The notes under the pieces: model-generated | Told to the model about the DNA's origin: nothing | What the model saw: the letters and a program-made list of their open reading frames with translations, nothing else | The model's database searches: none | Source of the DNA: Escherichia coli | Lineage (GTDB): Bacteria > Pseudomonadota > Gammaproteobacteria > Enterobacterales > Enterobacteriaceae | Assembly (NCBI RefSeq): GCF_003334255.1 | Contig: NZ_QOWU01000100.1 | Reading direction: 5' to 3' (one strand) | DNA: 6,492 nucleotides | Made by a program: the position numbers and the translations under genes | Shown here: positions 649 to 752 of the stretch, piece after piece | Position numbering within the stretch: the stretch's first letter is position 1 | How the letters are laid out: each line of letters begins with the position of its first letter

Positions 649-689
649 TTGCTATCCTCTTGCGTTGGTGCGCTTGTCGCGCATCATGA

Positions 690-730
690 AGGTTTGTTTA
701 GGTTTATAAAAGATACTCGTGCGAGTATCT
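690..730. promoter_or_regulatory. Lysogeny-switch operator/promoter region: direct repeat AGGTTT x2 (690-695, 700-705), a TATAAA hexamer (705-710) and a perfect 9-2-9 palindrome AGATACTCG-tg-CGAGTATCT (711-730)
   Basis: Read directly from the sequence. The elements sit in the 104-bp gap between the divergent Cox-position and C genes, where the face-to-face Pe/Pc promoters and C/Cox operators lie in P2 and 186. Exact -35/-10 assignments could not be made with confidence. Confidence 0.5.
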
Positions 731-752
731 TTCGCGAGAGGTTAATACTCAA

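Follow-up and report, generated by a model that had tools for sequence, protein, structure and literature searches.

All P2-type C operators that have been characterised or predicted are non-palindromic direct repeats, and the way in which the immunity repressor C binds them has been called puzzling (PMC2995052, PMC4752584). The oddity of P2 C is that a symmetric helix-turn-helix dimer is said to bind repeats without dyad symmetry, and it is thought to make specific contact by only one helix per repeat (PMC2995052). The P2 operators O1 and O2 are 8-bp direct repeats 22 bp apart, and the Cox boxes read TTAAA(G/C)NC(A/C). The footprint of P2 C consists of four protected patches, extending about 12 nt past O2 (PMC1904263). 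In the C-Pe-Pc-Cox switch of WPhi (Liu and Haggard-Ljungquist 1999; PMC1904263, PMC1904268) the half-sites, direct repeats of 10 bp, have no inverted counterpart and lie 34 bp apart (PMC1904268).

Outside these two phages, the pR-pL region of phage 186 has converging promoters and a palindromic repressor operator beside 10-bp-phased direct repeats for the excisionase/regulator Apl (PMC7498355, PMC1904263). Over Pc or pL, Cox and Apl proteins bind to boxes present in several helically phased copies (PMC3936717, PMC7498355). C.Esp1396I, which controls a restriction-modification system, acts as symmetric helix-turn-helix dimers on two tandem, directly repeated palindromic operators and forms a tetramer; its published likeness to P2 C is a structural one only (PMC2995052). 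PhiECO5 of E. coli UTI89 has been placed in a tentative immunity class IX, in a study in which its operators were not analysed and function was left "to be determined" (Nilsson et al. 2011, PMC3448106).

In this study, we report the analysis of a switch of this kind on a stretch of 6,492 nucleotides of Escherichia coli DNA (contig NZ_QOWU01000100.1, hereafter the window). What appears to be new is that the distal operator copy forms a complete dyad, with the direct-repeat layout of P2 and WPhi kept. No palindromic operator of a P2-type C came to light in text searches of the literature; Karlsson et al. 2006, on immunity classes I-VII, may describe inverted repeats in one class or another.

The prophage and its divergent regulatory genes

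The window matches E. coli STEC2018-607 at 100% identity and comprises the right end (int-C-cox end) of a P2-like (Peduoviridae) prophage located just upstream of dmsABC (dmsA). The prophage carries P2-family capsid, terminase, tail and replication genes, with the order cox/C-int. Related prophages were found at the same dmsA site in approximately 330 of 5,426 complete E. coli genomes and in 3 phage records. The exact cassette of the window (690-1000, at least 95% identity) is rare, being present in 4 of the 5,426 genomes, and its type was absent from all records of the phage collection searched. Approximately 280 E. coli genomes carry another version, termed group B below, whose match to the window does not start before 726, a position in the right arm of the palindrome described in the next section. 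Elsewhere in the same prophage, beyond the window (5411-7143 of locus L001), the terminase large-subunit gene is annotated as frameshifted, and the prophage may for that reason be defective.

The genes of the switch are as follows:

124-648, minus strand: cox-like gene, an open reading frame of 174 aa; Pfam Phage_Cox PF10743 (E 2.1e-5, residues 58-129); phrog_23196, "transcriptional regulator"
753-1094, plus strand: C immunity repressor gene, 113 aa; PDB 2l49/2xcj (P2 C), E 1.6e-13; Pfam HTH_3
1164-2156, plus strand: integrase gene (int), immediately downstream of C on the same strand

The Phage_Cox match of the 174-aa protein is weak (E 2.1e-5), the protein is nearly twice as long as P2 Cox, and a comparison with the P2 Cox structure (4LHF) gave no sequence match. 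Its homologues in UTI89 and 98889 are named "Cox family DNA-binding protein" in RefSeq. Outside residues 58-129 it has a charged N-terminal extension of 57 aa and a tryptophan-rich C-terminal extension, both of which are missing from P2 Cox (91 aa) and from the 86-aa Cox of related loci. The recognition helix of C, LAAIRNYES, aligns to helix 3 of P2 C. An alternative start, TTG at 762, is homologous to the ATG of P2 C and could be the true start of the gene. By analogy with P2, int may be co-transcribed with C as a P2-like operon. The start of the cox-like gene (648, minus strand) and that of C (753) leave a gap of 104 bp, and the arrangement of a Cox-family gene diverging from a P2-C-family gene supports the view of the locus as a compact P2-type lysis/lysogeny switch.

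At the attachment end, a full-length match to the enterobacterial small RNA STnc130 (Rfam RF02084, 124.8 bits) lies on the minus strand at 2231-2365. The matches of prophage-free E. coli genomes to the window begin at about 2240-2258, at STnc130, which suggests that the prophage uses the 3' end of this sRNA gene, upstream of dmsA, as its integration site and reconstitutes the gene on insertion, in the manner of phages at tRNA genes. Two copies of TAATTTGC, 10 bp apart, occur at 2160-2177, where P2 Cox binds attP; the similarity of their TTTGC unit to the switch is weak, as is the periodicity at att. Two copies of TGTCCA, 11 bp apart, occur in the 3' end of int (2132-2148), and the complement TGGACA matches the consensus tgTGGaCa of P2-type Int arm sites. 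Motifs shared between the switch and the att-proximal region (ATTTGCT, TTGCGTT, ATCATSAAGG, AAGGTKTGTT) were set aside: although suggestive, they are about as numerous as chance would produce.

Putative operators and promoters of the cox-C spacer

An earlier note on this DNA, confined to 649-752, had described AGGTTT at 690-695 and 700-705, a TATAAA hexamer at 705-710 and an inverted repeat AGATACTCG-tg-CGAGTATCT at 711-730. All three were found as described on rereading the sequence. The inverted repeat is real, but its designation as a perfect 20-bp palindrome had to be corrected in size and in perfection: the arms are 11 bp long and the central TG is not self-complementary, so that the element measures 11+2+11 = 24 bp with an asymmetric centre. 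The interval of 649-752 also left out a direct copy of the element (O1) that lies 32 bp away and overlaps the C start codon. The elements now assigned to the spacer are:

~662-710, no strand assigned: 10-bp periodic array, putative Cox boxes; units centred on TTGT 674-677, TCAT 684-687, TTGT 694-697 and TTAT 704-707
665-693, plus strand: candidate Pc, low confidence; TTGGTG (665-670), 17 nt, GAAGGT (688-693)
709-732, no strand: putative operator O2, dyad-symmetric, 24 bp; AAAGATACTCG (709-719)-tg-CGAGTATCTTT (722-732)
739-744, minus strand: predicted Pe -10, TAACCT; TAATCT or TATCCT in relatives at the same 18-nt spacing
741-764, no strand: putative operator O1, a degenerate direct copy of O2 at a distance of 32 bp; core GGTTATCTT at 755-763
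763-768, minus strand: predicted Pe -35, TTGACA, perfect consensus (TGTCAA on the plus strand)

An 11-bp arm was reached in only 3 of 20,000 dinucleotide-preserving shuffles of 649-752. The pattern AAGATA-N8-12-TATCTT occurs once in the 42-kb locus of prophage plus flank, against no occurrence in 100 shuffles.

The early promoter Pe was predicted on the minus strand as TTGACA (768-763), 18 nt and TAACCT (744-739), which was the top promoter in the window in a position-weight scan; the form TTGACA-18-TA(A/T)(C/T)CT was the top hit in all nine loci scanned (the window and eight others). The -35 hexamer is present at this position in 38 of 40 sequences compared, being missing from the two most distant loci, and P2 and WPhi have it as their annotated or published Pe -35. 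The predicted Pe (739-768) lies partly inside the C reading frame, and with Pe so placed, O2 would cover roughly the first 24 nt of the early transcript (+1 to +24). An initial candidate for Pe, TTGAGT (751-746), 17 nt and GATACT (728-723), with a score of 9.2, was given up because it was outscored by the conserved TTGACA-18-TAACCT, which is homologous in position to the P2 and WPhi promoters.

When the loci were anchored on the conserved TGTCAA (763-768 of the window), a direct copy of the half-site was revealed abutting the hexamer, with the sequence ATGGTTATCTTGTCAA in groups A and B and ATGGTGAACATGTCAA in group C (groups as defined in the next section). This copy, O1, occupies the Pe spacer between -35 and -10, overlaps the annotated start codon of C, and corresponds in position to O1 of P2 and WPhi. 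O1 and O2 agree at 13 of 24 positions at an offset of 32, compared with about 10 at other offsets, and in a 24-nt self-comparison 9 of 10 operator types gave their highest match count at an offset of 32-33 bp (13-21 of 24 positions, versus about 10 elsewhere). The O1 core covaries with the palindrome, reading GGTGAAC in group C, and the inner bases of O1 in the window are of the group-B type. In two loci, L032 and L034, the inverted arm is missing and the direct repeat is kept. The N-terminal residues of C vary by operator type (MVILS, MSILS and MVNMS, from 753-766 of the window compared with L019 and L021), because O1 overlaps the first codons of the annotated gene. A search for a third copy by 9-mer matrices, cognate against non-cognate, was uninformative (background 6-7 of 9) and was replaced by the 24-nt offset scan. 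A further candidate, AGATAACTCTTT at 616-627 inside cox, considered as a fourth, inverted half-site, was rejected because it is unchanged in L021 despite the CTTCACC-type operator of that locus and so does not covary.

The promoter of C cannot be placed from the sequence. TTGGTG/GAAGGT is the sole plus-strand candidate at a conserved position, with a score of 2.9 in the window and of 6.5-9.9 in relatives; the rival candidate TTTATA (703-708)/TATCTT (726-731) is the best in the window, with a score of 9.9, and is lost in group C. The TATAAA hexamer was examined as a -10 element and rejected: no acceptable -35 accompanies it on either strand, and relatives have TGTAAA or TGTTTT in its place. The hexamer is neither conserved nor the predicted -10 of either promoter, and a role for it has no support. 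Of the overlapping face-to-face promoters proposed earlier, Pe has a predicted position at 739-768, and Pc is not assignable from the sequence.

The AGGTTT copies at 690-695 and 700-705 are the two right-hand units of the 10-bp array. Among 20,000 shuffles, 723 (3.6%) contained an exact 6-mer repeat at a spacing of 10 or 11 bp, and the AGGTTT repeat is therefore marginal by itself; it gains weight from the relatives. In each of the 11 loci tested, unrelated sequences included, the autocorrelation of the cox-proximal half of the spacer was highest at 10 bp, and the signal of the window (0.38) was the weakest of all. In groups B and C, four TTGT units follow one another with a period of exactly 10 bp, whereas only two exact units are found in the window, the second and fourth being degenerate (TCAT, TTAT). 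In L018 the spacer (1387-1500 of the locus) is 114 bp long compared with 104 bp, the difference being one extra 10-bp unit, GGTTTGTTTT, by which helical phase is kept. The array is unchanged in L021, where C has been swapped and Cox is 99% identical, and it is of a GGATT type wherever Cox belongs to the unrelated 86-aa family, whatever the C operator. As the motif follows the Cox family, and Cox and Apl proteins bind phased boxes, the AGGTTT repeats and the array probably represent Cox boxes, an assignment made with less confidence than that of the C operator.

Covariation of the palindrome with the repressor

The spacers of 39 related loci from IMG/VR were read in register. The position of the palindrome is fixed among them, and its sequence falls into types:

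Group A (the window, L003, L004, L014): AAAGATACTCG-nn-CGAGTATCTTT
Group B (approximately 280 E. coli genomes): AAAGATAAYC-nnnn-GGTTATCTTT
Group C (includes UTI89): CTTCACC-nnnn-GGTGAAG

More distant loci have unrelated palindromes, such as TCAATGGTCG-N8-CGACCATTGA in L033. Among 15 distinct sequences, 9 of 11 arm pairs had changed on both sides and yet remained complementary, and 88.5% of cells were complementary as against 44-58% in controls with slid partners.

Two loci, L021 and L022, separate the contributions of the two proteins. Their Cox is 98-99% identical to that of the window and their C only 73%, and a group-C palindrome, CTTCACC-N4-GGTGAAG, occupies the same place. Identity between the window and L021 is 98-100% at 151-700 and at 1001-2156, and 50-74% at 701-1000. 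As the divergence is confined to the latter interval, a cassette of approximately 300 bp would move as one unit:

700-1000, no strand assigned: exchangeable immunity cassette, comprising O2, Pe and O1 together with about 83 codons from the start of C

In the comparison of the window with L021 and L022, the left breakpoint of the cassette lies between the two AGGTTT units and the right one near codon 83 of C, the N-terminal two thirds of C being exchanged and the C-terminal tail unchanged.

L034 is the reciprocal case. Its Cox is unrelated (86 aa, 14% identity), its half-site is TATCT as in the window, and its C helix, LSTVRNYES, is of the same type as LAAIRNYES of the window. Across all types the half-site sequence follows helix 3 of C:

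Helix 3 (I/V)RNYES: half-site TATCT, in every C with this helix, L034 included
Helix 3 VGTIGNYES: half-site GGTGAAG
Helix 3 LGTVKNYES (WPhi): half-site GTCACCAATA
Helix 3 YGTLSYYES (P2): half-site ATCTAAAC

Because the palindrome is exchanged together with C while Cox stays, and because the half-site tracks helix 3, the palindrome is best read as the operator of the immunity repressor C rather than as a Cox site. The earlier note had connected the direct repeats with C and the palindrome with a CI- or Cox-type protein. This assignment is reversed by the comparison, since the palindrome covaries with the DNA-binding domain of C although Cox remains 99% identical, the type of half-site goes with the recognition helix of C also in the presence of an unrelated Cox, and the array follows the Cox family. 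The more general proposal that two repeat systems side by side form separate operator sets is borne out, with the palindrome varying with C and the 10-bp array with the Cox family. The inner bases of the arms are not correlated with the A36T substitution of the recognition helix (L017). They differ between groups A and B without tracking this substitution; the two groups may be homoimmune.

Alternative readings and the proposed switch

Several other explanations of the repeats were weighed against a C operator. On the minus strand the palindrome folds into a hairpin of -12.9 kcal/mol (z = -5.6) exactly at the predicted +1 of the Pe transcript, and it could thus be an RNA or single-strand structure, a 5' stem-loop that stabilises or modulates the cox mRNA with no protein operator involved. 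The compensatory changes that preserve pairing agree with this, and arm covariation alone cannot separate selection for protein binding from selection for RNA structure. A purely RNA role is nonetheless unlikely: it leaves unexplained why a direct, non-complementary copy 32-33 bp away covaries with the arms and why the half-site tracks the C recognition helix, the inverted arm is dispensed with in L032 and L034 where the direct repeat is kept, and the asymmetric variant that recurs (...AATC in the left arm, GGTT... in the right) would put an A-C mismatch into the Pe transcript. On account of the covarying direct copy, the helix 3 correlation and the two loci without an inverted arm, the hairpin is ranked as a secondary or additional role of the palindrome, which may thus be dual. 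Another reading is an intrinsic terminator or attenuator acting on converging transcripts. The stem contains GC pairs and is followed by TTTTAT on the minus strand; however, a scan of 500-900 for intrinsic terminators found none, termination on the minus strand between +1 and +30 of Pe would abort all early transcription, the plus strand continues with CGCGAG and has no U tract, and group-C stems are only 7-10 bp long with no U tract apparent after the stems in the sequences read. We regard this reading as highly improbable. In the switch no Rfam family was detected, the sole Rfam hit being STnc130 at the att site.

The converse assignment, with the AGGTTT direct repeats serving C and the palindrome serving the Cox-like protein, would fit the published description of P2-type C proteins as direct-repeat binders (PMC1904268) and the separation of the AGGTTT copies by one helical turn. 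It is very unlikely in view of L021, in which Cox (99%) and GGTTT-type units are retained and yet the palindrome has been replaced together with C, and of L034, which combines the TATCT half-site and the RNYES helix of the window with an unrelated Cox and a GGATT array. Furthermore, published C half-sites lie 22-34 bp apart and flank elements of Pe, rather than 10 bp apart beside cox (PMC1904268). That the repeats are functionless chance features of an AT-rich spacer can be virtually dismissed: the frequency of 6-mer repeats in shuffles would allow it for the AGGTTT copies alone, but not the rarity of the arm length, nor a position that is conserved while the sequence is replaced in several independent operator types.

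We consider it likely, from the comparisons above, that the locus is a P2-like prophage immunity switch in which C on O2 and O1 shuts off Pe and Cox on the 10-bp array silences Pc. A symmetric C dimer would bind the dyad-symmetric O2 (709-732) at the start of the early transcript, and a second would bind O1 (741-764), three helical turns from O2 and between the -35 and -10 of Pe, so that the two dimers together would switch off Pe and with it the cox-led lytic operon. The specific half-sites would lie about 3 to 9 bp to each side of the dyad, approximately 11 bp from centre to centre, a spacing that suits a dimer contacting two successive major grooves. In the opposite direction, the Cox-like protein would oligomerise on the four- to five-unit array (~662-710) and silence Pc, hence C and int.

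The layout resembles that of WPhi, whose C is homologous (48% identity by tblastn): the Pe -35 TTGACA adjoins the start of C, the first of the two operator copies is within the spacer of Pe and the second downstream of its -10, and the operators are about three helical turns apart (34 bp in WPhi, 32 bp here). It differs from WPhi in that the distal operator is a perfect palindrome with 11-bp arms, and in the length of Cox (90 aa, from a 273-nt CDS, in WPhi compared with 174 aa). P2 likewise shares the gene order, the overlap between the Pe -35 and the start of C (TGTCAA/ATG), an O1 in the Pe spacer and an O2 downstream of the -10, as well as the symmetric C dimer, and its published footprint beyond O2, with four patches, fits the extra arm found distal to O2 here (PMC1904263). 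In P2, however, the spacing is 22 bp instead of 32 bp, and the sequences of half-sites and Cox boxes are unrelated. The hallmark of the family, two direct copies flanking the Pe -10, is thus found here with respect to the predicted -10, at a distance of 32 bp within the published range of 22-34 bp (PMC1904268), whereas the non-palindromic half-sites published for P2 C are not, the distal operator having perfect 11-bp inverted arms.

PhiECO5 belongs to the same clade of dmsA-adjacent prophages, with the same long Cox and an identical operator architecture. Its cassette is of group C, TTCTTCACCA-tg-TGGTGAAGAA, its C is approximately 71% identical to that of the window, and the cassette of the window represents a further, rare type. 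Phage 186 offers the likeness of a palindrome beside phased direct repeats. Its CI is a two-domain protein of 196 aa and of a type unrelated to the 113-aa P2-type C, and 186 has three inverted repeats, distal sites and cII, none of which is found here. With a repressor of the P2-C type, a single palindrome in 42 kb and no cII-like gene annotated downstream of cox, the locus is not a CI/Apl/CII switch of the 186 type. The mode of binding suggested here, two symmetric dimers on tandem palindromic operators, is that of C.Esp1396I, whose operators are 15 bp apart from centre to centre as against 32 bp in the window; the structural likeness cited above was drawn with P2 C, not with the C of the window.

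The variant described here makes the oddity of P2 C easier to read. The pairing of a symmetric operator with a degenerate copy in tandem points to two cooperating dimers, one on each operator, an arrangement that predicts the "fourth protected patch" of the P2 footprints. A tentative generalisation, about which we are more doubtful than convinced, is that P2-family C repressors fundamentally read dyads of approximately 24 bp in two tandem copies about three helical turns apart, the direct repeats of P2, P2 Hy dis and WPhi being decayed dyads of which one arm is recognisable. No residual dyad symmetry is visible by eye around the half-sites of P2 and WPhi, P2 O1 and O2 included.

The clade is common in E. 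coli and its switch is otherwise ordinary, so that the findings will be of use mainly to specialists. If the dyad reading is true, the symmetric distal operator of this clade would provide a natural, crystallisable substrate for addressing the long-standing problem of how a symmetric C dimer reads direct repeats. In addition, a module of 300 bp that exchanges the C DNA-binding domain jointly with its operators in near-identical prophages would supply matched repressor/operator pairs for studying the evolution of immunity specificity.
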